Part shown: positions 8,437-36,773 of the stretch, one piece after another | How positions within the stretch are numbered: the stretch's first letter is position 1 | How the letters are laid out: the number at the start of each line of letters is the position of its first letter | From: Bacteroidia bacterium | GTDB taxonomy: Bacteria; Bacteroidota; Bacteroidia; J057 | Length of the DNA: 64,000 bases | Reading direction: 5' to 3' | NCBI GenBank assembly: GCA_033762375.1 | Contig: JANRLQ010000055.1 | Coordinates: 1 to 64,000, forward strand | The notes under the pieces: model-generated | Databases searched by the model: none | What the model was told of the DNA's origin: nothing | What the model saw: only the letters and a program-made list of their open reading frames with translations | Made by a program: the position numbers and the translations under genes

Positions 8437-9012
8437 TCACCCCCACACCACGCCTCGGTACAGATCCCGCATGGCGATTTCAGCGCCCATACTGGGGAGG
8501 CTGATGGTCGTTTCCAGTCCTTCATAGGCCCGGAACTGCCACAGGCCGCTCTCGTCGCGGGAAAACACTTCTACTAAGGGCTGCTTTTGCGAGATAAGCA
8601 CGTAGTCGCGCAGGGAAGACAGGGTACGGTAGAGCCGGAACTTTTCGCCCCGGTCATAGGCTTCGGTGCTGTCGGAGAGCACCTCAGCGATCAGCACGGG
8701 GTTTACGAGGGCGTTGGGGTCGAGGGGCGAATAGTGCTCCGGACCGCAGACCAGCGAGGCTTCGGGATAGAGGAAGCAGTCCTCCGCCTCGATGCGGATG
8801 CGCAGATCGCCGTTGAAGGAAGTGCAACCGCTGCGGCGGGCCAGGAGATTGAACTCTGTTACTATGTTGCCTCCCAGCATGCTGTGGTTACGTGTGCCGC
8901 CTGCCATCGCAAACAGCTCGCCCCGGTGGTACTCATGCCGGACATCGGCGCTGCGCTCCAGCTCCAGGTAATCGGCCACGTTCAGGCGGAGGCTTATGGC
9001 TGCTTCTCCCAT
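8437..9012 (-). CDS. Uma2 family (DUF820) putative restriction-endonuclease-like protein
   Basis: The ~190-aa protein fits the Uma2 pattern (ADYLELE...RHEYHRGELFAMAGGTRNHSMLGGNIVTEFNLL...PVLIAEVLSDSTEAYDRGEKFRLY). The start is taken at the internal Met (MGEAAISL). Confidence 0.7.
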   Translation of the reverse strand: MGEAAISLRLNVADYLELERSADVRHEYHRGELFAMAGGTRNHSMLGGNIVTEFNLLARRSGCTSFNGDLRIRIEAEDCFLYPEASLVCGPEHYSPLDPNALVNPVLIAEVLSDSTEAYDRGEKFRLYRTLSSLRDYVLISQKQPLVEVFSRDESGLWQFRAYEGLETTISLPSMGAEIAMRDLYRGVVWG

Positions 9013-9070
9013 AGGATGATTCTTTGAGGAAATATACGGGTTTTTGGGAAAAAAGTAGCAGGATGCTCGC

Positions 9071-10513
9071 TTACACCTGCCTAAATAGCGCATCCAGCGT
9101 GAGCTGGCTGTCAACCAGCCCCAGGCTGTGGGCATTATGGCGCAGGCCAAAGGGGGTAATGAGGGTGAGCCATACTTGCTTGCGGGTGCCTGTAGCTTCC
9201 TTGAAGGCAGCTACCCGGTTGCGGAGCCGGAGGGCTTCCTCTTTTGTGAGGCTGAATTCCCCGGCGTAAAACTTGAGCTCGAATACATGAATCACATGGT
9301 CGCTTCGCTCCAGCAGCAAATCCACCTGAAGTCCTGGTTGAGAATCAGTTCCGCGCTGAATATAAGATCCTGCCTGGGTCAGCACGCCCGAAATGCCCAG
9401 CGCCTGTTTGATGGAGGGGAGGTGCTTCAGGCACATGTTTTCAAAGGCATAACCTGACCAGCTTACAAAACCTTGTTCTTTAGCGAGTTGCTGCCACTGC
9501 TCCACCCCACGCTCCAGATACGGCTCCATAAATTGCAGGTAAAACAGAGAAAACTCATCCGTGAGGCGATAAAGTCTGTCTTTTTTCTTCTTTTCAAAAG
9601 GGGCTATGCGGGAAATAAAGTCAGAATGCAGTAGTTCTTCGAGCACCGTGCTCAGGCTTCCGCCATCTGAAAGTCCCGTTGTGTGGGCTATTTCAGTGTA
9701 TGTCAACCCCTTTTTCCGGGTTGCCAGGGCCTTTACAATGGCGAGATGTGTTTTGGGTGACTCAAATAGCGCTGCAAAAAGCTTGGGAAACTCATCGCGC
9801 AAGAGTCCGTTGGGAGAAAAACAAATAGCCTCGATGTTTTGGGCAGCGCTGCGGCCGCCGGTCACTTCGTTGAGGTAGAGCGGCACCCCGCCCAAAACCA
9901 TATACAAGTGTGCAAGCTGGTAACGGTCAAACTGAATGTGGCGGGATTCGAAAAAAGCCTCCGTTTCAGCCAGCGTAAAGGGCTGCAAATGAATACGGCG
10001 TGTGATACGGTTGTGCAATCCCCCTTTGTGATTCACCACATGTTTGATCATCCAGGATGCGGCTGAGCCGCAGATCACTACCACGACGGGCTGGTTGACT
10101 GCCCAACTGTTCCAAAACCAGCTTAGTCCCTTCAAAAAGCCTGATCCATGCGTGGCCAGCCAGGGCAATTCATCCAGAAACACGACCCATTTGCCTTCTT
10201 TGGGTTTGTTTTCCAGGGCCTGCGATAATTGAAAGAAGGCATCAAGCCAATCACGAGGCTCAGGCCCTAAGGCAGAAAACCCACCCAGTCGAGCCATCTG
10301 AAAAGAAAAATTCCGGAGTTGCTCGCTTCGGCTGGCGTGTTGAATACCCGTAATTTCGAAATCGAGTTGTTGCTGGAAAAAGGATTTGACGAGAAAGGTT
10401 TTCCCAACCCTCCGCCGACCAACTATAGCTACCAGCTCTGCGCCAGGCGATCGAAGCGTTTGATGGAGGACTTGCTGCTCTGCCGTGCGACCAACGAGTG
10501 GGTAAGGAGTCAT
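9071..10513 (-). CDS. ATP-binding protein of the archaeal-ATPase/DUF234 family (AAA-like)
   Basis: Walker A (VGRRRVGKTFLV) and Walker B-like (VVFLDELPWL) motifs are present. The C-terminal DUF234-like region carries a winged-helix segment (LAIVKALATRKKGLTYTEIAHTTGLS). Confidence 0.8.
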   Translation of the reverse strand: MTPYPLVGRTAEQQVLHQTLRSPGAELVAIVGRRRVGKTFLVKSFFQQQLDFEITGIQHASRSEQLRNFSFQMARLGGFSALGPEPRDWLDAFFQLSQALENKPKEGKWVVFLDELPWLATHGSGFLKGLSWFWNSWAVNQPVVVVICGSAASWMIKHVVNHKGGLHNRITRRIHLQPFTLAETEAFFESRHIQFDRYQLAHLYMVLGGVPLYLNEVTGGRSAAQNIEAICFSPNGLLRDEFPKLFAALFESPKTHLAIVKALATRKKGLTYTEIAHTTGLSDGGSLSTVLEELLHSDFISRIAPFEKKKKDRLYRLTDEFSLFYLQFMEPYLERGVEQWQQLAKEQGFVSWSGYAFENMCLKHLPSIKQALGISGVLTQAGSYIQRGTDSQPGLQVDLLLERSDHVIHVFELKFYAGEFSLTKEEALRLRNRVAAFKEATGTRKQVWLTLITPFGLRHNAHSLGLVDSQLTLDALFRQV

Positions 10514-24756: not shown

Positions 24757-25413
24757 ATGAATCCTTTTTTCCAGGCTGTTTTTGCCCCCTATAATTTGCC
24801 CTATACCCTGCTGTTATTGCTGTCGCTCTGCTACTGGCTCCTTGTAGTGGCAGGTGCGATAGACGGTCATGGCGGAGACCTGGATGCGGATGCAGACCTG
24901 GATCTGGATGCCGAGGCAGGTGTTGAGGCAGACCTGGAAGCTTCCGGTGCGCCCGGATGGGCTGCCAACATAGCAGCCTTTTTTAACATCGGCTCCGTAC
25001 CGCTGATGGTATTTATCACCCTGCTCACCCTCTCCATGTGGGCCCTGGCGATGATCGCCAACCTGTATCTGATACCCGACCCTGCGGGTTGGGCGGCCCT
25101 GGTGTTGTTTCCGGTGGTACTGGTCGTGTCCCTGTTTGTGGCGCGGCTGCTCTCCACGCCCTTCAAGGGCATGTATCGCCAGATGAATGAAGGGGGCATC
25201 TCCAAGCGCCAACTGGCCGGCAAAACCTGTGTGATCACCGTAGCCGTTGCGCCCGGACGCATCGGGCAGGCCGAGCTGACCTTTGAGGGGCATCATTTCC
25301 TCCTGAACGTCCGCACGGCCGATGATGAATCACTCGCGCGTGATACCGCTGCCCTGCTCGTAGAGTATGAGCCAGATACAGATTGTTTTGTGGTGACCCA
25401 GTTTGACGTTTGA
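24757..25413 (+). CDS. NfeD/YqiJ-like membrane protein (DUF1449-like): acidic N-terminal region, two TM helices, and a C-terminal OB-fold
   Basis: The N-terminal region has an acidic low-complexity stretch (DGHGGDLDADADLDLDAEAGVEADLEAS). Hydrophobic segments follow. The C-terminal beta-rich segment (GKTCVITVAVAPGRIGQAELTFEGHHFLLNV) resembles an NfeD OB-fold. The gene sits immediately upstream of the flotillin gene, as in yqiJ-yqiK. Confidence 0.6.
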   Translation: MNPFFQAVFAPYNLPYTLLLLLSLCYWLLVVAGAIDGHGGDLDADADLDLDAEAGVEADLEASGAPGWAANIAAFFNIGSVPLMVFITLLTLSMWALAMIANLYLIPDPAGWAALVLFPVVLVVSLFVARLLSTPFKGMYRQMNEGGISKRQLAGKTCVITVAVAPGRIGQAELTFEGHHFLLNVRTADDESLARDTAALLVEYEPDTDCFVVTQFDV

Positions 25414-25471
25414 TACTTCCGGCCCTGCTTAAGCTGTAAAAACCTTTGTATCCCCCTATATTTTTTCTCCC

Positions 25472-27637
25472 ATGATTCTCCAGATTTTATTGACAGTCGT
25501 GATCATCCTGGCCTCAGTGGTGATCGGCTATTTCCTGCTCATCGCCCTGTTTTACCGCAAAGTAACCCAGGGTAAAGCCATCGTGCGTACAGGCATGGGG
25601 GATACCCGTGTCAGCCTTAAGGGTATCTACGTCATTCCGGTCCTGCACAATGCGGAGGTGATGGATATCTCGCTCAAGCAGGTACAGCTCAGCCGTGAGG
25701 GCAAGGATGGGCTGATCTGTAAGGACAACCTCCGGGCAGACATCAAAGTCGCCTTTTTTGTGCGGGTGAGCCCCAATGAAGATGACATAAAAAAGGTCGC
25801 ACAGACCATCGGATGTGCCCGTGCTTCTGACCCTGAGTTGCTGCGCAGCCTGTTTGAGGCCAAGTTTTCAGAAGCGCTCAAAACAGTCGGCAAGCGGTTT
25901 GACTTCGTCGAACTCTACAGCACCCGTGAAGCCCTCAAGACAGAGCTGCTGCAGGTGATCGGCAAGGACCTCAACGGGTATATGCTGGACGATGCCGCGA
26001 TTGACTACCTGGAGCAGACTCCCTTGCAATTTCTTGACGAAAACAACATCCTCGACTCAGAGGGTATCAAAAAAATACGGGACCTCACCGCACGCCAGAT
26101 TACGGAGGCTAACAAAATCCAGCGGGACCGGGAGAAGGAAATCAAACGCCAGGATGTAGATGCACAGGAGGCCATCCTGCAACTGGAACGTCAGCTGGCA
26201 GAAAAACAGGAAGTACAGAAACGCGAGCTGGCTACAATCCGGGCACGGGAAGAGGCTGAAACACGACGTATCCAGCAGGAAGAGCTGACCAAGTCCGAGC
26301 GGGCCCGTATCGCACGCGAGCGGGAAATCAACATCGAGGAAGAAAACAAACTCCGGGACGTGATGGTCGCCCAAAAAGGAAAAGAACGCTCCGAAGCCAT
26401 TGAAAATGAGCGGGTACAGCGGGACCGGGAGCTGGAAGCCACAGAGCGGGAGCGCATTGTGTCCATTGCCCAGATAGCCAAAGAAAAAGCCCTGGAGGAA
26501 GAAAAGAAAAATATCCAGGACGTGATCCGGGACCGTGTGATGGTAGAAAGGGCCGTGGTGGAGGAAAAAGAAAAAATCAAAGACACGGAAGCCGTTGCGT
26601 CAGCTGAGCGGGTGAAAAAAGTAGCCCTGCTGGAGGCTGAACAAAAAGCCCAGGAGCAATTGGTCCAGACGATCAAAGCAGCAGAGGCGGCCAAAGCGGC
26701 AGCTGAGCTGGATGCACAGCGCCGTATCATCGAGGCCAATGCTGAGCGTGAAGCAGTGGACAAGGAGGCGGCTTCCCGCAAGATCATGGCAGACGCTATC
26801 GCCGAAGAAAATGCTGCCCTCGGCCTGTCTGAGGCACGTGTGATCGAGGCCAAGGCTGCCGCACATGAAAAAGAAGGTATGGTCGAGGTCTCGATCATGG
26901 AGCACAAAGCGGCGGCTGAGGCACGTGCCCTCCAGCTCAAAGGAGAGGCCAACGCCGGAGCCGAAAAAGCCCAGGGCCTCTCCATCGCCGCTGTCACCAT
27001 CGAAAAAGGCCTGGCTGATGCCAAAGTCCTCGAAGCCAAGGCCCTTGCCACCCAGCAGATGGGCCAGGCTGAAGCCCAGGTCATTGAGCTCAAGGCTGTT
27101 GCAGAAGCCAAAGGGATGGAGTCCAAAGCCGATGCCATGAAAAAAATGGACGGAATCGGACGCGACCACGAGGAGTTCAAACTCCGCCTCGAAAAAGAAA
27201 AAGCCGTGGACCTGGCCCGTATCAGCACCACTTCCGAGCTGGCAGCCGCCCAGGCAGGCGTATTGGCCGAGGCCCTGCGCGTAGCCAAGATCGAGATTAT
27301 CGGTGGCGAGCAGGCCTTTTTTGACCGGCTCTCCGGGGCTGTCGTTAATGCCCGGTACGTGGATCAGCTAATGGACAAGAGCCATCACCTCCAGGACTTC
27401 AAACAAGCCCTGCTCAGCTCAGATACCAGCGGCAATACCCTGATGAGCAGTATCAGCCAGTTTCTGAGCCAGTTTCCGGTGAGTCCTGAAGACTTAAAAA
27501 ACCTGAGCCTCACAGCCCTGATCGCCCGGCTGATGGCCCAGACCACGGACCCCGGCAAACTGGACGCACTGCGGCATATGCAGGGGCTGGCGACGGCCCT
27601 GGGCATCGGGGCGGAGGAGAAACCTGCTAACAAATAA
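25472..27637 (+). CDS. Flotillin family (SPFH/band 7) protein with a greatly extended Ala/Glu-rich coiled-coil
   Basis: An N-terminal TM is followed by an SPFH domain (KAIVRTGMGDTRVSLKGIYVIPVLHNAEVMDISLKQVQL). A ~450-aa coiled-coil with EA/KA repeats follows. At 721 aa it is longer than YqiK/FloT-like proteins. Confidence 0.85.
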   Translation: MILQILLTVVIILASVVIGYFLLIALFYRKVTQGKAIVRTGMGDTRVSLKGIYVIPVLHNAEVMDISLKQVQLSREGKDGLICKDNLRADIKVAFFVRVSPNEDDIKKVAQTIGCARASDPELLRSLFEAKFSEALKTVGKRFDFVELYSTREALKTELLQVIGKDLNGYMLDDAAIDYLEQTPLQFLDENNILDSEGIKKIRDLTARQITEANKIQRDREKEIKRQDVDAQEAILQLERQLAEKQEVQKRELATIRAREEAETRRIQQEELTKSERARIAREREINIEEENKLRDVMVAQKGKERSEAIENERVQRDRELEATERERIVSIAQIAKEKALEEEKKNIQDVIRDRVMVERAVVEEKEKIKDTEAVASAERVKKVALLEAEQKAQEQLVQTIKAAEAAKAAAELDAQRRIIEANAEREAVDKEAASRKIMADAIAEENAALGLSEARVIEAKAAAHEKEGMVEVSIMEHKAAAEARALQLKGEANAGAEKAQGLSIAAVTIEKGLADAKVLEAKALATQQMGQAEAQVIELKAVAEAKGMESKADAMKKMDGIGRDHEEFKLRLEKEKAVDLARISTTSELAAAQAGVLAEALRVAKIEIIGGEQAFFDRLSGAVVNARYVDQLMDKSHHLQDFKQALLSSDTSGNTLMSSISQFLSQFPVSPEDLKNLSLTALIARLMAQTTDPGKLDALRHMQGLATALGIGAEEKPANK

Positions 27638-27660
27638 CAAGATACCTCCCGCCCGATCTC

Positions 27661-28329
27661 ATGCCCAGAAGCACTGCCTGGTTCATACTGTTGCTGATGA
27701 CGGCCTGTGGCCGTCATCAGACCCTGTTTGACCGGAGTGCGCCGGAAGACCTGCCGCCCCAGCTCCGGGAACTGGCGATTGCTGCTGCTGCCTATGGAGA
27801 CCCATCGTATGTCCGGACCTATACCTTCACGGATGGTAACCAGCCGGTGCGGACTGAGGTTACCTGGCTCCGGCTCGATCCGGGCCAGCGTATCCGGCAG
27901 CGGGAGGTGTATCATGTATTTGACTCCCGCGCCCTGGACACCCGCGAGTACTACGTGACAGAGATGCGCCTGGACTTGCAAGATACCGTTTCCCGCCAGC
28001 TGTTTCTGGACTTCAGGATCGTGGCTGACCGGGATACGGCCCGTGTGGTGATCGCAGACCGGCAAGAGGTGCGGGTGAACCGGATTGATACCCTGGTTGT
28101 AGGAGGCGAGTCAGAGGTAGTGGCACGCCTGCTCGGATATGCACACGAGGGAGATGACCGCCCGGGCCACCACAAATATTGGTCCCCACGGTACGGCACA
28201 CTTCTCGTCTGGTATGGAAACGGAACCCGGCTCACCCTGACAGATGCCCCGCCTGCCCAGCGAGATCAGGCCCTGGCCCTCGTTGCGGCCGTAAGCGCCA
28301 CCCTTGATACAACCCTGACCGACCCTTGA
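27661..28329 (+). CDS. Lipoprotein, hypothetical
   Basis: A lipobox is present (FILLLMTACG). There are 23 bp downstream of the flotillin gene and 43 bp upstream of the giant ATPase gene. Confidence 0.5.
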   Translation: MPRSTAWFILLLMTACGRHQTLFDRSAPEDLPPQLRELAIAAAAYGDPSYVRTYTFTDGNQPVRTEVTWLRLDPGQRIRQREVYHVFDSRALDTREYYVTEMRLDLQDTVSRQLFLDFRIVADRDTARVVIADRQEVRVNRIDTLVVGGESEVVARLLGYAHEGDDRPGHHKYWSPRYGTLLVWYGNGTRLTLTDAPPAQRDQALALVAAVSATLDTTLTDP

Positions 28330-28372
28330 TGGTGACTTGAGCTGATGCACCGCTATTTTACCGCTTTTTTTC

Positions 28373-31300
28373 ATGGCTGACTCCACCCCCCAGACCATTT
28401 CTGCCCAGCCTACGCTTGATACAGGGACTTACGAGCTCCTGCGCCGGCGTATGCTTGATCAGGCCACAGAGCTAAGCACCCGGCTCGACCGGCTGAATGC
28501 GGCCCGGCAGGCAATATTTGGTGCCTCCGAAAGCCGGCTCCTGGCGACCCGCCATATCACCACTGAAAACAACTGTATCCCGCGGGATATGGCAGCCTTT
28601 GGGCAGCACTTTTTATTCGGCTACAATGTCCATATCGGGTTGCGGGCCGGGATGCGGCTGGAGGATGTGTTCAGCTTGTTCCGGTTTGAGCCTCAGGATC
28701 ACTCGTTCCATGAGCTACCCCTGGAAATGCTGCGCCAGGGGCGGTTTGAAGAAAACTTCCGCAACCTCTTCACCTATTATAAAGACACGACCTTTGCCCG
28801 GTTTGCCCTGATCGGTCCCAGCCTGTTTATGGTTTTCCAGACTGGCAAACAAGTTTCCGACATCAAGACATTCAAATGGACCATCCGGGAGGATACACTT
28901 GTGTACGAGGGCGACCGGTTTGACCACGAGTACCGCCTGCCGGAGCAGTTTGCCTTTACCTGGAAACGCACCGGCCGGGAGATGCAGCGCCGGGGGATTT
29001 ATCCACATATTTCGATTGAAGACCGGTTATTTGTAGAATGTATTGGCGGAGACCTCACCATCAAAGTGGAGGACAATACCGATACAGGATTGGGTATCTA
29101 TGCCGAACCCGTCGAGGTAGCCGACCAGACCCTGGACGATGCCGAGATTTCCTATGCCCTGGCAGGAAACCTGATTGTCCTCAAAATCAGGCCTTACCAG
29201 GAAAAACAAACCCGCTACATAGTCGTCAGCGACAAGCTGAAGCACGCCTTGCGGGTAGATGCCCTGGAGCAGGCCTGCGTCCTGCTGCCGGAGTCTCAGG
29301 GTATTATTTTTCCCAATGGGTACTACCTCCAGACGGGTGCCTACAAACTGTTTGACAAGCTGGCGGCAGGTCTTCAGTACGAAAAACGCATTCAGTCTGC
29401 GGCAGGAGAGGATTTTCTGTATGTGTTTTCCCAGCCCCAAACCGGCGAGTACGTATTGATGCCCTACAACCTTGTCGCCCAGCAGGTGACGACGCCGGTG
29501 ATATGTCACGGGTATTCGTTATTTGATCAGGGAGAGTTGTGTTTTTTCAGGGCCGAATCAGAACCGGGGCGGCACCACGTGATCCAGGTATGGCATACGC
29601 CTTATGGTCGGCGGCCTGTGATCGCCAGCGGTGCAGAGGACAGTTATATCTATAAGGTCGGGAGCAAAGACCTGGTCCGGGGCATGGCCGAGTGCCGTGC
29701 CCTTCTGACCCTGGCCCAGCAGGAGACCCCTTATGATGCCTTGTATGCGGACCTGGTACACCAGGCCAGCAGCATGCTCGATGCGTACTATTGGCTGAGT
29801 CATCCGGAGGCAGGCGAACTGTCAGTACCGCTGGCAGGTCTGCGGGATGCTGCTGCTGCTACCATTGAGGCATTTGAAAGTACCCGCCGCCTGCAGCGCC
29901 ACGCACAGCAGGCCCTGGCAGACTTTACGCATCGCGTGCGGTCACTGCTCGACAAAATCCGCCGTCGGCGGGCGGAGTCCCTGGAAACTTTTGTGGGGTA
30001 TCTGACAGAGCTGCGGACTCTGCGGGGCGAGGCCATCTCCCTGCGCGAACTGCGGTATGCAGATACAGCTGCTTTTGCAGCGCTGGAGGCCCAGTTGCTG
30101 GAAGGACAGACCGATACCGGGATCAAGTGTGCGACTTTTCTCGCAGACCCTGCTTCACTCACTCCCTATGCGCGGGAGATTGAAGCCCTCAAGCAGCAGA
30201 CGGAATCTTTTGCGACTGTAGCTGCCTCCAAATCTGTGCAGGAGGCTGCCGATAAGGTCGGTAGCAGCCTGTCGCTGCTCACAGAGACCGTCGGTAACCT
30301 GCCGATCACCGATACCACCGAATCCACCCGGATCGTAGAGCAGATCGCGGCCCTGTATGCAGCCCTCAATGGCGTACAGGCCCGTATCCGGCAGCGCCGT
30401 ACCACCCTGCAGACCACGGAGTCGTCCGCTGCTTTTTTTGCTCAGATGCAGCTTCTCGCCCAGTCTGTCACCCATGCCCTGGATACCAGCCAGACCCCGG
30501 AGGCCTGCGAAGCAAGCCTTGGGCTGCTGACGGTGCAGTTGGAGGAGCTGGAAGGAAAGTTTGGTGAAACCGACACCTTCCTGCCCGAGCTCACCCGCCA
30601 GCGGGAGGAGATACACCAGGCATTTGAATCCCGGCGGTTGCAATTGCTGGAGGCACGGAATAAGCGGGTCACGACCCTCATGCAGGCAGCCGAGCGCCTG
30701 CTGGACTCCCTGCAATCCCGGGCCCAGCGCGAAGACGATCCGGCTGCATTGCGGGCTTTTTTTGCCTCCGACCTGCTCGCTGGCAAGGTCCGCACCATTA
30801 TGACCCAGTTGGAGGCCCTTCAGGATGCCGGCAAGGCCGATGACCTCCGAAACCGACTCCGGGCCCTCGAAGATACCTCCCTGCGCGCCCTCCGTGACCG
30901 GAAAGACCTTGCCTCCGAGACCGCTGGGGGCATCCGGCTGGGGCGGCATACTTTTTCAGTCGTAGGACAGCCTCCGGAGTTGTCCCTGGTACCCCGTGAC
31001 GGGGAGATGTACCTGCACCTGACGGGCACCCGCTTTTTTGAGAAAGTGACCGATCCGGCATTTCTGGAGACCCGGGCCACCTGGGAGCAGGTTTTTGTCA
31101 GTGAAAATACGCAAGTATATCGGGCGGAGTATCTTGCCTGGCAGGTATTACACCACGGCAACCTGCCCCCGGTACTTCCTGCTGCTGAGATACAGGCAGC
31201 CGTCAGGACATTTGCGGCGAGCCGTTATGAAGAGGGGTATGTCAAAGGGGTACACGACCAGGATGCAGCCCTGATCTATACGGCCCTGCGGGAGGTGCAT

Positions 31301-33232
31301 GAGCTGGCCGGTGCCCTGCGTTACCTGGCCGGTGCACGCGCCCTGGCATTGCTCTGGTGGGAGCGTTTTTTGCCGGAGGAATCCCGAAAAAGGTGGCTGA
31401 TCAGGCTGGAAGCTGCTGCCCTGGCCCGTGAGACCTTAGGTGTACATACCCAGGCGGCCGCCCTGATTGCCGCCCTTACCCAACACCTGGAAACCTTCGC
31501 CACCGACACCGGTATCGGCGCCGCTGCCCATGCTGGAGAAGCTGCTGCGTATTTGCTGGCAGTACGGGGGCGGGATTGGGTCGTGAGCAAGGGGGCCGCT
31601 ACCGGACGGGAGCAGTTTGAAGCATATCTGAAGCAGCATAAAGCCGCCACACACTGGCAGACGGCATTTAAGGCCCTGGCGGATCACCCCGCTGAGCAGG
31701 CTGATATGGTCAGGACCTGGGTACAGGGATTTGTGCAGACACCGGGTGCTCCCGCCCTGCTGCCCGGCGAAGACGCCGAAATCATGGCCATGCTGATGTG
31801 TAATGCTCCTGTCTGGACGGTCCCCCAGATCTCACTGACACGGGAACTGACCGGCTTGCAGGGCGAACATCCCGTCCTCAACCAGGGACATTATACCTTT
31901 TCTTACCCGGTATTTACCCATCGCCTGCGCACCTATGAGGCGGAAACCGTACCCGTATTCCGGGCGTATCAGGCCCAAAAAACAAAGCTCCTCGCAGCGG
32001 CAGGAGAGCGGATCAAGCCTCACCAGCTCCGGCCACAGCCGATGGCTTCCTTTGTGCGGAATCAGCTCATTGACAAGGTATATCTGCCCCTGATCGGCGA
32101 CAACCTCGCCAAACAAATCGGCACCAGTGATGCCAGCCGCGCTGACCGGATGGGGATGCTCCTGGTGATCTCTCCGCCGGGATATGGCAAAACCACCCTG
32201 ATCGAGTATGTCGCGCACCGGCTGGGACTCATTTTCCTCAAGGTGAATGGCCCCGCGCTCGGGCGGGAGGTGACCTCCCTGGATCCGGCTGCCGCCCCCA
32301 ATGCTGCCGCCCGCGAAGAACTGGAGCGTCTCAACCTGGCCTGGGAGATCGGCGACAACGTAATGTTGTATCTGGATGATATTCAGCACTGTAACCCGGA
32401 GTTTTTACAAAAGTTCATCTCCCTCTGTGATGCCCAGCGCAAAATCGAAGGGGTCTACCGGGGGGTATCCCGCACGTATGACCTGCGGGGAAGGCGTTTT
32501 GCAGTGGTCATGGCAGGCAACCCCTATACCGAGAGCGGCGAAGCCTTCAGTATTCCGGACATGCTCGCCAACCGGGCCGATACCTATAACCTGGGGGACA
32601 TTCTCGGCAATACCCGGGACCTGTTCGGTCTGAGTTACCTCGAAAACGCCATTACTTCCAACCCTGTTTTGCAGCCCCTCGGCAGCAGCCCGCCGGAAGA
32701 CTTGCAGACCCTCTTCCGGATCGCCGCTACCGGCAACCGGGAAGGTGTGCAGTGGGTGTCCAATATCGGTGAGTCAGAGGTCAATGAAGCCGTAACCGTT
32801 CTGCAAAAACTGGCCCGTATCCGGGATGTGGTGATGCTGGTAAACCAGGCGTATATCCAGTCGGCAGCCCAGGCAGAGGCCTACCGGACCGAACCCCGTT
32901 TTTTGATGCAGGGCTCTTACCGGAACATGAACAAAATGGCCGAAAAAGTCCTGGCTGCCATGAATGATACGGAGTTAGATACCCTTATTCTCAGTCACTA
33001 TACGTCGGAGTCACAGACCCTGACCCGAGATGCAGAGGCCAATCTGCTCAAGTGTAAGATGATCTGCGGGTACGCTACACCCGAGGATGAAGCCCGTTGG
33101 CAGCAGATTCTGGAGACCTTTCGCCGCAACCATCTTCTGTCTGCCGACCGGATGGGACAGATTGTGCAGCAGCTCGGACTTCTTGCCGAAAACCTCGCCG
33201 GTATCCGCACCCGGTTTGAGGCGGAGGCGTAA
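28373..33232 (+). CDS. Giant (1619 aa) cytoplasmic multidomain protein with a C-terminal MoxR/AAA_5-like P-loop ATPase domain
   Basis: A single uninterrupted ORF with no signal peptide. Walker A (ISPPGYGKTTLIEY, ~32176-32205), Walker B (VMLYLDDIQHCN) and sensor-1 (VVMAGNPYTE) motifs are followed by an arginine-containing tail (DMLANRADTYNL). A central ~350-aa Ala/Leu/Glu/Arg-rich helical region is present. Confidence 0.8.
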   Translation: MADSTPQTISAQPTLDTGTYELLRRRMLDQATELSTRLDRLNAARQAIFGASESRLLATRHITTENNCIPRDMAAFGQHFLFGYNVHIGLRAGMRLEDVFSLFRFEPQDHSFHELPLEMLRQGRFEENFRNLFTYYKDTTFARFALIGPSLFMVFQTGKQVSDIKTFKWTIREDTLVYEGDRFDHEYRLPEQFAFTWKRTGREMQRRGIYPHISIEDRLFVECIGGDLTIKVEDNTDTGLGIYAEPVEVADQTLDDAEISYALAGNLIVLKIRPYQEKQTRYIVVSDKLKHALRVDALEQACVLLPESQGIIFPNGYYLQTGAYKLFDKLAAGLQYEKRIQSAAGEDFLYVFSQPQTGEYVLMPYNLVAQQVTTPVICHGYSLFDQGELCFFRAESEPGRHHVIQVWHTPYGRRPVIASGAEDSYIYKVGSKDLVRGMAECRALLTLAQQETPYDALYADLVHQASSMLDAYYWLSHPEAGELSVPLAGLRDAAAATIEAFESTRRLQRHAQQALADFTHRVRSLLDKIRRRRAESLETFVGYLTELRTLRGEAISLRELRYADTAAFAALEAQLLEGQTDTGIKCATFLADPASLTPYAREIEALKQQTESFATVAASKSVQEAADKVGSSLSLLTETVGNLPITDTTESTRIVEQIAALYAALNGVQARIRQRRTTLQTTESSAAFFAQMQLLAQSVTHALDTSQTPEACEASLGLLTVQLEELEGKFGETDTFLPELTRQREEIHQAFESRRLQLLEARNKRVTTLMQAAERLLDSLQSRAQREDDPAALRAFFASDLLAGKVRTIMTQLEALQDAGKADDLRNRLRALEDTSLRALRDRKDLASETAGGIRLGRHTFSVVGQPPELSLVPRDGEMYLHLTGTRFFEKVTDPAFLETRATWEQVFVSENTQVYRAEYLAWQVLHHGNLPPVLPAAEIQAAVRTFAASRYEEGYVKGVHDQDAALIYTALREVHELAGALRYLAGARALALLWWERFLPEESRKRWLIRLEAAALARETLGVHTQAAALIAALTQHLETFATDTGIGAAAHAGEAAAYLLAVRGRDWVVSKGAATGREQFEAYLKQHKAATHWQTAFKALADHPAEQADMVRTWVQGFVQTPGAPALLPGEDAEIMAMLMCNAPVWTVPQISLTRELTGLQGEHPVLNQGHYTFSYPVFTHRLRTYEAETVPVFRAYQAQKTKLLAAAGERIKPHQLRPQPMASFVRNQLIDKVYLPLIGDNLAKQIGTSDASRADRMGMLLVISPPGYGKTTLIEYVAHRLGLIFLKVNGPALGREVTSLDPAAAPNAAAREELERLNLAWEIGDNVMLYLDDIQHCNPEFLQKFISLCDAQRKIEGVYRGVSRTYDLRGRRFAVVMAGNPYTESGEAFSIPDMLANRADTYNLGDILGNTRDLFGLSYLENAITSNPVLQPLGSSPPEDLQTLFRIAATGNREGVQWVSNIGESEVNEAVTVLQKLARIRDVVMLVNQAYIQSAAQAEAYRTEPRFLMQGSYRNMNKMAEKVLAAMNDTELDTLILSHYTSESQTLTRDAEANLLKCKMICGYATPEDEARWQQILETFRRNHLLSADRMGQIVQQLGLLAENLAGIRTRFEAEA

Positions 33233-33354
33233 TACAGCCCGAAACAGCTTAGGAATCTGCACATGACACATTAATCCCTGTTGCTTAATCCGGAATGTGG
33301 CGTATATTAGGGGAGAATCAACCCGCTCATCAACCGCTAACGATCCGTTTGCTG

Positions 33355-34506
33355 ATGAAGTTTTTTGTAATCCGTAAGCCTGCCTTCGCTCGTTCTTATT
33401 GTCTGGGGCTGCTCATGCTGCTGCTGCCTGCTGCCCGGTCTCAGCCTGCCTTTTCTTTTTTTTGCGAACTGGACAGTACGGCATTTCTCCAACTGACCCG
33501 GGACACCAGCGTGATCCGGGACTTACAGGCCATCCGGGCTGCTGTCAGGGTAGGGCTGCTGGACCTGAGCCAGACCCGCGCAGAGGGCGTTCGTAACCTC
33601 AATGCGGCAGGTATCCCGGTAGTGGCCTGGTTACTTCTGCCCGCAGACTCAGGATATTGGTTTAATATGTACAACGCTGAGCAGGCCCAGCGGCGGTACG
33701 ACGCATTCAAAACCTGGTCAGCCGCCGACTCACTCCGCTGGATCGGGGTAGGCCTGGACCTGGAACCCCGCATGGCGGATATGCAGGAAGCCGTGCACGA
33801 TCCCTGGCTAGGTGCCCGGAAGGCATGGGGCAGGCTCTATGAGCAAGACCAACTCACCCGCGCACGTGAGACCTACACAGAGCTGATCCGGCGCATGCGG
33901 GCTGATGGGTTCCGGACGGAGAGTTACATTATCCCGCCTGTGCTGGATGATCGCCTGACGGGCACGACCTCATTTCAGCTCCTGATGGAGCTGGTAGATA
34001 TCGAAACAGACCTGGAGATTCCGATGTGTTATTCCAGTGTGCCCGGTTCCTCACCAGCACAGATCCTCTCCTACGGTGCAGGAGCAGCAGCAGTAGCTGT
34101 AGGCAGTACCGGCGGAGGCATCAAAGTAGACGGAATGGATGCCTTGCCCGCCATGAGTTGGGAGATGCTGGAGCGAGACCTGCTGCTGGCCCAGCAGGTG
34201 AGCCGTGAGATACATATTTTCAGCCTGGAAGGTTGTGTGGCACAGGGTTTTTTGCCCCGTATCCGCTCGTTTTATTACTTACAGCCCGTGGACATCAACA
34301 GCCGGGAGCTGGTGTCCGTGCAGCAGTTCCGGAGTCGCCTCCAACTCTTACTCAGGTTCCTGGCATATCCTACCTGGACGGTGGCCGGCATATGCTTAGC
34401 CCTGATCCTGGTCATTGCCTTCCTTGTATGGGGGGTGATAGGCGTGCGGCGTTTTTTCCGGCTTCGGCGCAAGGGCCGTGCCGCCGAGGTATCTTCAGCT
34501 GGCTGA
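33355..34506 (+). CDS. Hypothetical secreted protein with a C-terminal TM anchor
   Basis: A signal peptide (MKFFVIRKPAFARSYCLGLLMLLLPAARSQ) and a C-terminal hydrophobic helix (VAGICLALILVIAFLVWGVIGV) followed by a basic tail. Confidence 0.5.
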   Translation: MKFFVIRKPAFARSYCLGLLMLLLPAARSQPAFSFFCELDSTAFLQLTRDTSVIRDLQAIRAAVRVGLLDLSQTRAEGVRNLNAAGIPVVAWLLLPADSGYWFNMYNAEQAQRRYDAFKTWSAADSLRWIGVGLDLEPRMADMQEAVHDPWLGARKAWGRLYEQDQLTRARETYTELIRRMRADGFRTESYIIPPVLDDRLTGTTSFQLLMELVDIETDLEIPMCYSSVPGSSPAQILSYGAGAAAVAVGSTGGGIKVDGMDALPAMSWEMLERDLLLAQQVSREIHIFSLEGCVAQGFLPRIRSFYYLQPVDINSRELVSVQQFRSRLQLLLRFLAYPTWTVAGICLALILVIAFLVWGVIGVRRFFRLRRKGRAAEVSSAG

Positions 34507-34836
34507 CAGGCAGAAAATTTCCGTCATGGGTGCCCATTTTACCCCATCAGGTGCCTCCGGGACAGGCTCCTGTAAGGTTGTCATGAGGTCTTCCCATTCG
34601 CGGCACCGGGGGTGGAGGTCCAGGTACCGGGGCAGGTCACGGTCCGGGTCAAAATCCACGCCGCCTGTCAGGTACATACACAACCGCCTCCCCAGGATAA
34701 ATATCCGCATATCCTTGACCCCCACTTTTCGCAAGGCGTCTAATACCTCCGGCCACGGCTGGGCATGATAAGCCAGGTATTGCCGGATGGCTTCCGGATC
34801 GTCCCGGAGGTTCAGGGTTTTGGCAAAAATGTTCAT
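34495..34836 (-). CDS. L-rhamnose mutarotase-like (RhaM/DUF718, Dabb fold) protein
   Basis: The 113-aa protein shows the RhaM family pattern (RQYLAYHAQPWPEVLDALRKVGVKDMRIF...MYLTGGVDFDP...PRCREWEDLMTTLQEPVP). Confidence 0.5.
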   Translation of the reverse strand: MNIFAKTLNLRDDPEAIRQYLAYHAQPWPEVLDALRKVGVKDMRIFILGRRLCMYLTGGVDFDPDRDLPRYLDLHPRCREWEDLMTTLQEPVPEAPDGVKWAPMTEIFCLSAS

Positions 34837-35010
34837 CAGCGCATTCAGGTTACAGCCTCAGGCAGCCAGGTATCTCTTCCGTCAGGAAAAAACAAACCCG
34901 GGCGATACACTGGGGACTGAGACATTCGTTTGATACAGGAGGAAAGCCGGGTATAAAAAACATTTTCAAAATACTCCAAAAACCGGGAATATCAGACAAG
35001 TGAAAGTCAC

Positions 35011-35127
35011 TTATCCACAATATCGGGCTTTTTTATCCACAATGTATTGTCAACCTTGTGGATAAATAAAGCAGGAGGCCGCTGGAAGCCTAAATGTCTG
35101 GTGTGCCAAATGTATATTTGTGGATAA
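35011..35127. promoter_or_regulatory. Cluster of four perfect consensus DnaA boxes (TTATCCACA) in an AT-rich intergenic region upstream of dnaB
   Basis: TTATCCACA occurs at 35011-35019 and 35033-35041. The reverse complement TGTGGATAA occurs at 35057-35065 and 35119-35127. An AT-rich stretch flanks them (34940-34985 ggtataaaaaacattttcaaaatactccaaaaacc). Confidence 0.7.
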
Positions 35128-35243
35128 ATAGATAGGACGGTGTATTTCAGGCCTTTATCATCTTTCAAAAATGTGCGGATCAGGTAGTATCTTTAAAGCC
35201 CGGTACCAAAGCAGAAGACCCGATTTGACCCCAAACGCAACAG

Positions 35244-36773
35244 TTGCACATGGATAACACGTTTCGCGACGCACTGCCCACAGACCCATCAGACCGCGAC
35301 AAAGGTAAAGTCCGCAACCTGGCCCAACAGGCAGGGATGGCTGGTGCTAAACTCCCGCCGCAGGCCCTTGATATGGAGGAGGCAGTCCTGGGAGCACTCC
35401 TGCTGGAGAAGGACGCCCTGCACCGTATTATGGACATTCTGCAGCCACCTATGTTTTACAAGGATGCCAACCGGGTCATCTTTGAGGTCATTCTGGAGCT
35501 GTTTCAAAGTTCGTCACCTGTGGACATCCTCACCGTCAAGGATGCCCTTCGCCGGGTCGGTAAACTGGAAATGACAGGCGGGGCTTTTTACCTGACCGAA
35601 CTCACCGCACGGGTCGCTTCTGCTGCGAATATTGAATACCATGCACGGGTCGTCGCCGAAAAATACATCCTCCGCTCGCTGATCAAAGTATCCGACGAGG
35701 TTGTGCGGCAGGCATACGATGAGACCACCGATGTGTTTGACCTGCTGGACAAAGCCGAGCAGAGTCTGTTTGAAATCTCGGAGACCAACCTCCGCCGTAA
35801 CTACCTGGGCATGCCTGAGCTGGTCATCAAAACCCTGGAGCGGCTGGAAGAGATGCGGAGCAAAAGCAGCAGCGTCACGGGTATCCCCTCCGGTATCGCG
35901 GAGCTGGACCAGATTACGGCAGGCTGGCAACGCACAGACCTGGTGATCGTGGCAGCCCGTCCGGCGATGGGTAAAACAGCCTTTACCCTGTCTGTGGCCC
36001 GTAATGCAGCACTTCGGTTCAACCAGCCGGTGGCCTTTTTTTCCCTGGAAATGGCGGCCGTACAGCTCACCCAGCGCTTGATCTGCTCAGAGGCAGAACT
36101 TGACGCCCAGAAGGTCCGTACCGGCCAGCTCGCTGACTACGAGTGGAAACAACTCATCACCCGCATCGGGGCGCTGAGCAAAACCCCACTTTTTATTGAC
36201 GATACACCTGCCCTCACAGTGTGGGATCTCCGCGCCAAATGCCGCCGCCTCAAGGCGGAAAAAGGTATTGGTATGGTCATCATTGACTATCTCCAGCTGA
36301 TGACCGGACAAGCCAGCAAAGGGGGCAACCGTGAACAGGAGATTGCCGGTATCTCCCGTGCGCTCAAGGAACTGGCCAAAGAGCTTGACGTAGTCGTGAT
36401 CGCACTCTCCCAGCTGAGCCGCGCAGTGGAGTCACGCGGCGGCGACAAACGCCCCGTACTGAGTGACCTCCGGGAGTCTGGCTCCATCGAGCAGGACGCC
36501 GACATGGTTATGTTTCTGTATCGTCCGGAATACTACGGGTTTGAAACCGATGATGACGGCAACTCTACCGAAGGATTGGCCGAAATTATCATCGCCAAAC
36601 AACGTAACGGTCCTACCGGTACGGTCAAAGCGCAGTTTATATCCAAATTTGGCCGGTTTACAGACTGGCAGGCAGGGGTCGTGCACGGGGCTGAGTCCTA
36701 TGTGGACACAGGCAATACGATCACCCTCCCGTCCCGTATGAACCAGGAAAACAACTTTGATGTTCCCTTTTGA
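35244..36773 (+). CDS. dnaB: Replicative DNA helicase DnaB
   Basis: The N-terminal DnaB domain (QALDMEEAVLGALLL...) is followed by a RecA-like domain with Walker A (VIVAARPAMGKTAFTLSVARN) and Walker B (MVIIDYLQLM). There is no intein. Confidence 0.9.
   Translation: MHMDNTFRDALPTDPSDRDKGKVRNLAQQAGMAGAKLPPQALDMEEAVLGALLLEKDALHRIMDILQPPMFYKDANRVIFEVILELFQSSSPVDILTVKDALRRVGKLEMTGGAFYLTELTARVASAANIEYHARVVAEKYILRSLIKVSDEVVRQAYDETTDVFDLLDKAEQSLFEISETNLRRNYLGMPELVIKTLERLEEMRSKSSSVTGIPSGIAELDQITAGWQRTDLVIVAARPAMGKTAFTLSVARNAALRFNQPVAFFSLEMAAVQLTQRLICSEAELDAQKVRTGQLADYEWKQLITRIGALSKTPLFIDDTPALTVWDLRAKCRRLKAEKGIGMVIIDYLQLMTGQASKGGNREQEIAGISRALKELAKELDVVVIALSQLSRAVESRGGDKRPVLSDLRESGSIEQDADMVMFLYRPEYYGFETDDDGNSTEGLAEIIIAKQRNGPTGTVKAQFISKFGRFTDWQAGVVHGAESYVDTGNTITLPSRMNQENNFDVPF

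Follow-up and report, generated by a model that had tools for sequence, protein, structure and literature searches.

The role of DnaA as a transcription factor for genes of DNA replication is well established. A link between this initiator and dnaB, the gene of the replicative helicase, is already known from the Alphaproteobacteria and the Actinobacteria. DnaA binds upstream of dnaB, in the Rv0057-dnaB region, in vitro in Mycobacterium tuberculosis (IDAP-seq) and also in M. smegmatis (ChIP-seq); the dnaB region is one of very few high-affinity DnaA sites on the chromosome there, and the authors note the agreement with Caulobacter (PMC7738170). In Caulobacter crescentus, dnaB is a member of the DnaA regulon and has a predicted DnaA box (Hottes 2005, reviewed in PMC8203912). 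Escherichia coli DnaA needs a double box with a 2-3-bp gap at nearly all of its chromosomal targets, and dnaB is not reported among these (PMC11317965). High-affinity boxes are also found in the E. coli datA locus, which has five, and non-origin box clusters in Bacillus subtilis regulate adjacent genes and restrain initiation (PMC3245932). For the Bacteroidota, a literature search of incomplete coverage found no DnaA regulon, no dnaB-linked DnaA box and no binding or expression evidence of this kind.

The DNA analyzed here, a stretch of 64 kb that we refer to as the window, provides a further case of this link with an unusually high number of consensus boxes, and it is only in the number and quality of these boxes that the array is distinctive. 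The array is located in a divergent intergenic gap of 413 bp (34837-35249, 43.6% GC) that separates a rhaM-like gene on the minus strand (34495-34836), encoding an L-rhamnose mutarotase-like protein (PF05336, 4.5e-23), from dnaB on the plus strand (35250-36773). The product of the latter is 507 aa long when counted from its ATG, and Pfam matches to DnaB_C (1.3e-107) and to the DnaB N-terminal domain (3.4e-31) identify the gene as the chromosomal dnaB, bearing out the initial annotation, which had placed a replicative helicase gene beside the boxes. The likely start codon is the ATG at 35250, with a TTG at 35244 in the same frame. An Rfam search of the gap found no RNA family, even with the threshold relaxed to E <= 1.

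A motif scan located four perfect copies of TTATCCACA in the gap, two per orientation within a span of 117 bp, as first described. Box 1 (35011-35019, +; extended form TTATCCACAAT) and box 2 (35033-35041, +) form an exact 11-nt direct repeat, 22 bp from start to start or about two helical turns. Box 3 (35057-35065, -) is convergent with box 2 at a spacing of 24 bp, the two being separated by a 15-bp gap and associated with a 17-nt imperfect palindrome (I1). Box 4 (35119-35127, -) lies 62 bp from box 3, with which it shares the exact 13-nt repeat TTGTGGATAAATA. When read in box orientation, the 11-mer TTTATCCACAA is common to all four copies, which together occupy the region 123-239 bp 5' of the dnaB ATG.

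Across the window, the five perfect copies of TTATCCACA compare with 0.45 +/- 0.66 expected from dinucleotide-preserving shuffles, and none of the 100 shuffles gave five copies. The frequency given earlier for this motif, about once per 130 kb per strand, needs correction, as the chance expectation for a 9-mer is one occurrence per 262 kb on each strand and one per ~131 kb on both strands together; the conclusion is unchanged, and the four-box cluster is real, non-random and far beyond chance. There was no excess of variant boxes in the window: 15 matches with at most one mismatch, including the five perfect copies, compare with 10.2 expected, and the 10 non-perfect one-mismatch matches compare with a total of ~10 expected by chance. 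Within the gap, the sole other site at two mismatches or fewer is the weak two-mismatch box TGATCCGCA (35174-35182). The fifth perfect copy, at 28999-29007 (+), lies 6 kb away from the cluster and inside the DUF3686 ATPase gene; with 0.45 copies expected per window, it can be explained by chance.

The gap also contains a second repeated motif, similar to AAAGCCSGGTA, with copies at 34943(+), 34979(+), 35021-35031(-) and 35195(+) within 34943-35205, and with four to five copies counted across 34894-35205. The copy at 35021-35031 sits precisely between boxes 1 and 2 and is read from the opposite strand. With the pattern AAANCCSGRNA, which was defined post hoc, 4 of the 13 matches in the window fall within the 413-bp gap.

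Comparison with the described systems sets this array apart in several respects. As in Mycobacterium, an initiator site stands beside the helicase gene and apparently away from the origin, but the phylum and the box consensus differ, and binding is experimental there and predicted here. The position of a DnaA box upstream of dnaB is shared with Caulobacter, where dnaB expression is DnaA-dependent and constitutes a feed-forward from initiator to helicase; that system has a single predicted box embedded in an alphaproteobacterial cell-cycle circuit, whereas the window has four consensus boxes and a TAnnTTTG-type promoter. DnaA-regulated promoters of E. coli with double boxes, among them those of dnaA, nrdAB and purH, resemble the window in carrying TTATCCACA boxes at replication-related genes (PMC11317965), and the 11-12-bp pairing of E. 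coli boxes is found in Bacteroidota relatives as well, whereas the boxes of the window are 22, 24 and 62 bp apart. Like datA and the B. subtilis clusters, the array consists of high-affinity boxes that would lie outside the origin, but datA has five boxes and requires IHF, whereas the array has four and is tied to one conserved gene. Finally, the array shares with an oriC the clustering of consensus DnaA boxes next to AT-rich DNA, but it is unlike one in having no skew inversion, no trio or unwinding module, no indicator genes and just one weak box.

To place the locus phylogenetically, we compared its DnaB with those of other bacteria, and all relatives recovered belong to the Bacteroidota. 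The best match among 185,579 species genomes is an unclassified MAG (locus L001) with 77% identity; the remaining relatives reach at most 61% and represent the Sphingobacteriales, Cytophagales, Bacteroidales and Flavobacteriales, and none closer was found above 77% in genomes or 61% in metagenomes. A type IX secretion sorting domain in the window and an enrichment of the Bacteroidota -7 promoter element also point to this phylum, and the window, as judged from its sequence, appears to derive from a sparsely sampled lineage of Bacteroidota.

Near-consensus boxes, defined by at most one mismatch to TTATCCACA, are concentrated directly upstream of dnaB throughout this set. Over the 250 bp preceding the start of dnaB, their density is 4.06 boxes/kb in 80 genome loci and the window itself, compared with ~0.25/kb elsewhere within +/-5 kb, and the result was replicated in 72 metagenome loci (1.94 vs 0.30 boxes/kb, with ten perfect boxes in the -250..0 bin). 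With the window excluded, the 250-bp upstream regions of 151 loci contain 110 boxes, 23 of which are perfect. Scanning with 150 scrambled motifs of equal composition yielded 10.5 +/- 5.4 matches (maximum 29), and context-preserving shuffles of the regions yielded 20.6 +/- 4.3. Since no box at this threshold is present within 500 bp in 60 of 146 relatives, the link between DnaA boxes and dnaB is frequent and not universal. Perfect boxes near dnaB number at most two in any of ~150 relatives, compared with four in the window.

The gene upstream of dnaB varies among the relatives, and the rhaM-like neighbor is not kept there. The closest relative, L001, has a different upstream gene (670 aa, divergent), and upstream of its dnaB are three tandem box-like sites 12 bp apart; its gap aligns with that of the window in the dnaB-proximal part, this single pair being the extent of the phylogenetic footprinting. 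The conservation of boxes at orthologous promoters regardless of neighboring genes was observed in both collections, genomes and metagenomes, and by this comparison the boxes appear to travel with dnaB and not with the neighbor gene. In L001, the gap upstream of dnaB contains a cobalamin riboswitch (RF00174, 109 bits; 9278-9472 of that locus, -), which serves the divergent 670-aa gene.

Other short motifs are also enriched upstream of dnaB in the remaining Bacteroidota (L002-L160, 300 bp upstream of the gene). The top 7-mers are ATTAACA, TTAACAT and GTTAATA, which are TTATTAACA-like and ~9-fold enriched in 28 loci, and ATCCACA (8-fold) and TTATCAACA are enriched as well. The TTATTAACA-like motif is repeated four to five times in the Sphingobacteriaceae loci L008, L009, L076 and L077, and could be a phylum-specific low-affinity variant of the DnaA box or the site of a second factor.

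As Bacteroidota promoters differ from those recognized by a sigma-70 scanner, we searched for the -7 element of this phylum, TAnnTTTG, which is 4.7-fold enriched in the intergenic DNA of the window. Among relatives, the geometry of boxes was evaluated for 86 loci with a TAnnTTTG no more than 70 bp from the start codon, and in none of the 86 does a box overlap the core promoter or lie 3' of it. Counted from the start of the -7 element, the starts of the boxes cluster at two positions one helical turn apart, -49/-50 and -59/-60, and of the 14 boxes in this zone 13 face the same way, reading TGTGGATAA on the coding strand. Partner boxes in the same orientation occur almost exclusively at spacings of 11-12 bp and 19-23 bp; the second spacing (~21 bp) includes the 22 bp between boxes 1 and 2 of the window. 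Such phase-fixed placement upstream of the promoter would be expected of an activator touching RNA polymerase.

Boxes of the window likewise lie in the promoter region, and three candidate -7 elements face dnaB. The first, P1 (TATATTTG, 35113-35120, +), is the only perfect TAnnTTTG in this direction; box 3 starts at -56 and box 4 at +6 relative to it, so that box 4 overlaps its 3' end. P1 implies a dnaB leader of ~120 nt, and L001 carries TATATATG at the aligned position. The second, P2 (CCGATTTG, 35220-35227, +), matches TAnnTTTG at 6 of 8 positions and is held within a start-proximal block, CCGATTTGACCCCAAACG (35220-35237, +), whose core CCnnTTTGAYCCCAWAC is common to L001. P2 occupies the position usual for the -7 element of other Bacteroidota dnaB genes, with box 4 at -101. 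The third, P3 (TATCTTTA, 35188-35195, +), matches at 7 of 8 positions and has box 4 starting at -69 in the orientation seen in relatives, a placement that by inference would fit the helical phase of their -49/-59 ladder. The three candidates thus yield differing geometries, with box 3 or 4 at -56, -69 or -101, and with none of them, P1, P2 or P3, does a box coincide exactly with the -49/-59 peaks of the relatives.

On the opposite strand and back to back with P1 is another perfect -7 element, TACATTTG (35107-35114, -), which is possibly the promoter of the rhaM-like gene. The combined sequence CAAATGTATATTTG (35107-35120) consists of the two perfect elements, TACATTTG (-) and TATATTTG (+), abutting box 4, and may represent a compact divergent promoter pair.

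The initial annotation had proposed this gap as a candidate oriC, with DnaA control of dnaB as the alternative, and the suggestion of an origin is not without basis. Ori-Finder 2022 gives its highest DnaA-box score to a cluster of at least three perfect boxes (Table S1, PMC10225481), and the gap has four such boxes within 117 bp of intergenic DNA. Box 1 has an AT-rich tract (34951-34996, 72% AT, in a window of ~55% GC) 15 bp to its left, the gap is flanked by divergent genes, and dnaA is absent from the window. In this reading, DnaA assembled on the boxes would melt the tract, making the gap a chromosomal or auxiliary origin. The other features of an origin, namely skew inversion, an unwinding module and linkage to indicator genes, were not found. 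Although the AT-rich tract exists as described, the claim that no intergenic stretch of the window is richer in AT does not hold: the tract ranks 3rd to 8th depending on the scale, with richer tracts near 55.3, 51.9 and 59.2 kb. Neither strand of the gap has three or more consecutive DnaA-trio triplets, compared with 37 such runs in the rest of the window. The AT content of the proposed unwinding element is ordinary for the window; the tract is more likely ordinary promoter-region DNA of a divergent gene pair. None of dnaA, dnaN, gidA, rpmH and parAB is among the ~40 Pfam-annotated genes of the window, and the DnaA domain IV signature [KR]DH[ST]T[VI] is absent from six-frame translations of the window and of 160 loci, the expression being strict enough that a divergent DnaA could escape it. 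Most genes to the right of the gap are on the minus strand and would meet a fork that leaves it head-on.

Strand composition was evaluated in the window and in the relatives. Raw plus-strand GC skew is +0.011 to the left and +0.034 to the right of the gap. Because the coding strand biases third-position skew, by -0.046 +/- 0.015 in this window, the GC3 skew of each gene was regressed on gene orientation and on side of 35 kb. The corrected values, +0.032 +/- 0.019 (left) and +0.043 +/- 0.022 (right), have the same sign and differ by 0.011, where a single replichore predicts equal values; their sum is 0.075 +/- 0.029, where an origin predicts ~0, a deviation of ~2.6 standard errors obtained from 64 kb only. 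The regression detected no skew inversion in the window at any split point from 5 to 55 kb. GC skew has the same sign on either side of dnaB in 49 of the 57 genome loci whose flanks each measure 3 kb or more (r = 0.67), and the pattern of an origin, negative on the left and positive on the right, occurs in only 4. Skew sign also agrees across dnaB in 26 of 32 metagenome loci (r = 0.55), giving one sign in 75 of the pooled 89. Even for loci with at least three boxes and adequate flanks, 10 of 12 are without the origin pattern. As the skew keeps its sign in relatives, dnaB is not generally at the origin in Bacteroidota, even where several boxes are present.

The two exceptions, L010 and L018, both from the Cytophagales, differ from all other multi-box loci in combining negative skew on the left with positive skew on the right. 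Each has a 12-bp-spaced TTATGCACA/TTATCCACA double box together with TTTTCCACA, ~100-250 bp upstream of dnaB, and an origin adjacent to dnaB is not contradicted at these loci.

Taken together, four independent tests, of skew, gap anatomy, gene context and the loci of relatives, do not support the candidate oriC, and we consider it very improbable that the gap is an origin. There is a similarly slight chance that an ancestral DnaA-regulated dnaB promoter has grown to four boxes and now fires as a chromosomal or auxiliary origin; if true, such a build-up would put an origin directly beside the helicase gene, but the skew around the gap and its lack of an unwinding module speak against it. The reading put forward originally as the alternative is instead supported, both by comparison (box enrichment and geometry) and by precedent in other phyla: the array is probably a high-affinity DnaA-binding array for the control of the dnaB promoter. 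DnaA would bind the array cooperatively, with boxes 1 and 2 on one face of the helix two turns apart and boxes 2 and 3 as a convergent pair, and the bound protein would modulate RNA polymerase at the dnaB promoter, such that the supply of helicase would follow the level of initiator. The control is probably activation, a sign favored by how boxes are placed in relatives and by the precedent of Caulobacter. Since box 4 overlaps the only perfect -7 element facing dnaB, this box may instead mediate repression when DnaA occupancy is high, or a dual control. The four consensus boxes would also titrate some DnaA as a side effect.

That last property could in principle be the main one. The number of boxes exceeds the need of simple promoter control and that of ~150 relatives at dnaB, it approaches the five high-affinity boxes of datA (PMC3245932), and the gap is nearly free of weak sites (one two-mismatch box), which suits titration. 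The array might therefore act mainly as a DnaA sink or modulator outside the origin, titrating DnaA or altering its nucleotide state and tuning the timing of initiation, with a secondary effect on dnaB transcription. This role would be compatible with promoter control, just as the B. subtilis clusters both regulate their neighbors and restrain initiation (PMC3245932), but we regard it as unlikely to be the primary one, since the feature conserved among relatives is the linkage to dnaB with promoter-phased geometry, which argues that the ancestral role was transcriptional. It is considerably less probable still that the boxes have no role at dnaB, and serve the divergent rhaM-like gene or another factor or are a functionless recent local duplication. 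The gap is common to dnaB and the divergent gene, and it contains the perfect minus-strand -7 element at 35107-35114, exact repeats of 13 nt (boxes 3 and 4) and 11 nt (boxes 1 and 2) that could reflect duplication, and the second repeat AAAGCCSGGTA; however, relatives have other neighbors and retain the boxes at dnaB, the motif matches the DnaA consensus exactly, and the scrambled controls indicate that the enrichment is specific to it.

The region to the left of the gap includes several additional features. A five-gene cluster on the plus strand (24757-34506) ends just before the dnaB gap and encodes proteins of 218, 721, 222, 1619 and 403 aa, three of which have no Pfam match; PADLOC gave no match for this cluster. 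The 721-aa member (25472-27637) is SPFH/flotillin-like with a long Glu/Lys/Ala-rich coiled coil, and an AT-skew spike of +0.28 at 26-28 kb coincides with its gene. The 1619-aa member, a 'DNA repair ATPase', combines DUF3686, DUF7902 and AAA, and the members of 218, 222 and 403 aa are unknown proteins. Further to the left, an ATPase gene (9071-10513, -) matches the PADLOC candidate defense family PDC-S27 (E = 5e-185), and is adjoined and overlapped by a gene for a Uma2-family putative nuclease (8437-9150, -; PDC-S03), so that 8437-10513 (-) is possibly a small defense locus.

These results have implications for both genome annotation and the biology of the phylum. A dnaB-adjacent gap with at least three perfect boxes tops the Ori-Finder box score and could therefore be mistaken for oriC, which calls for caution in automatic origin prediction for draft Bacteroidota genomes. 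The link between DnaA and dnaB appears to run through the Bacteroidota, with a box geometry that is locked in phase and orientation to the unusual -7 element of this phylum, and this locked geometry makes activation of dnaB by DnaA a directly testable hypothesis.
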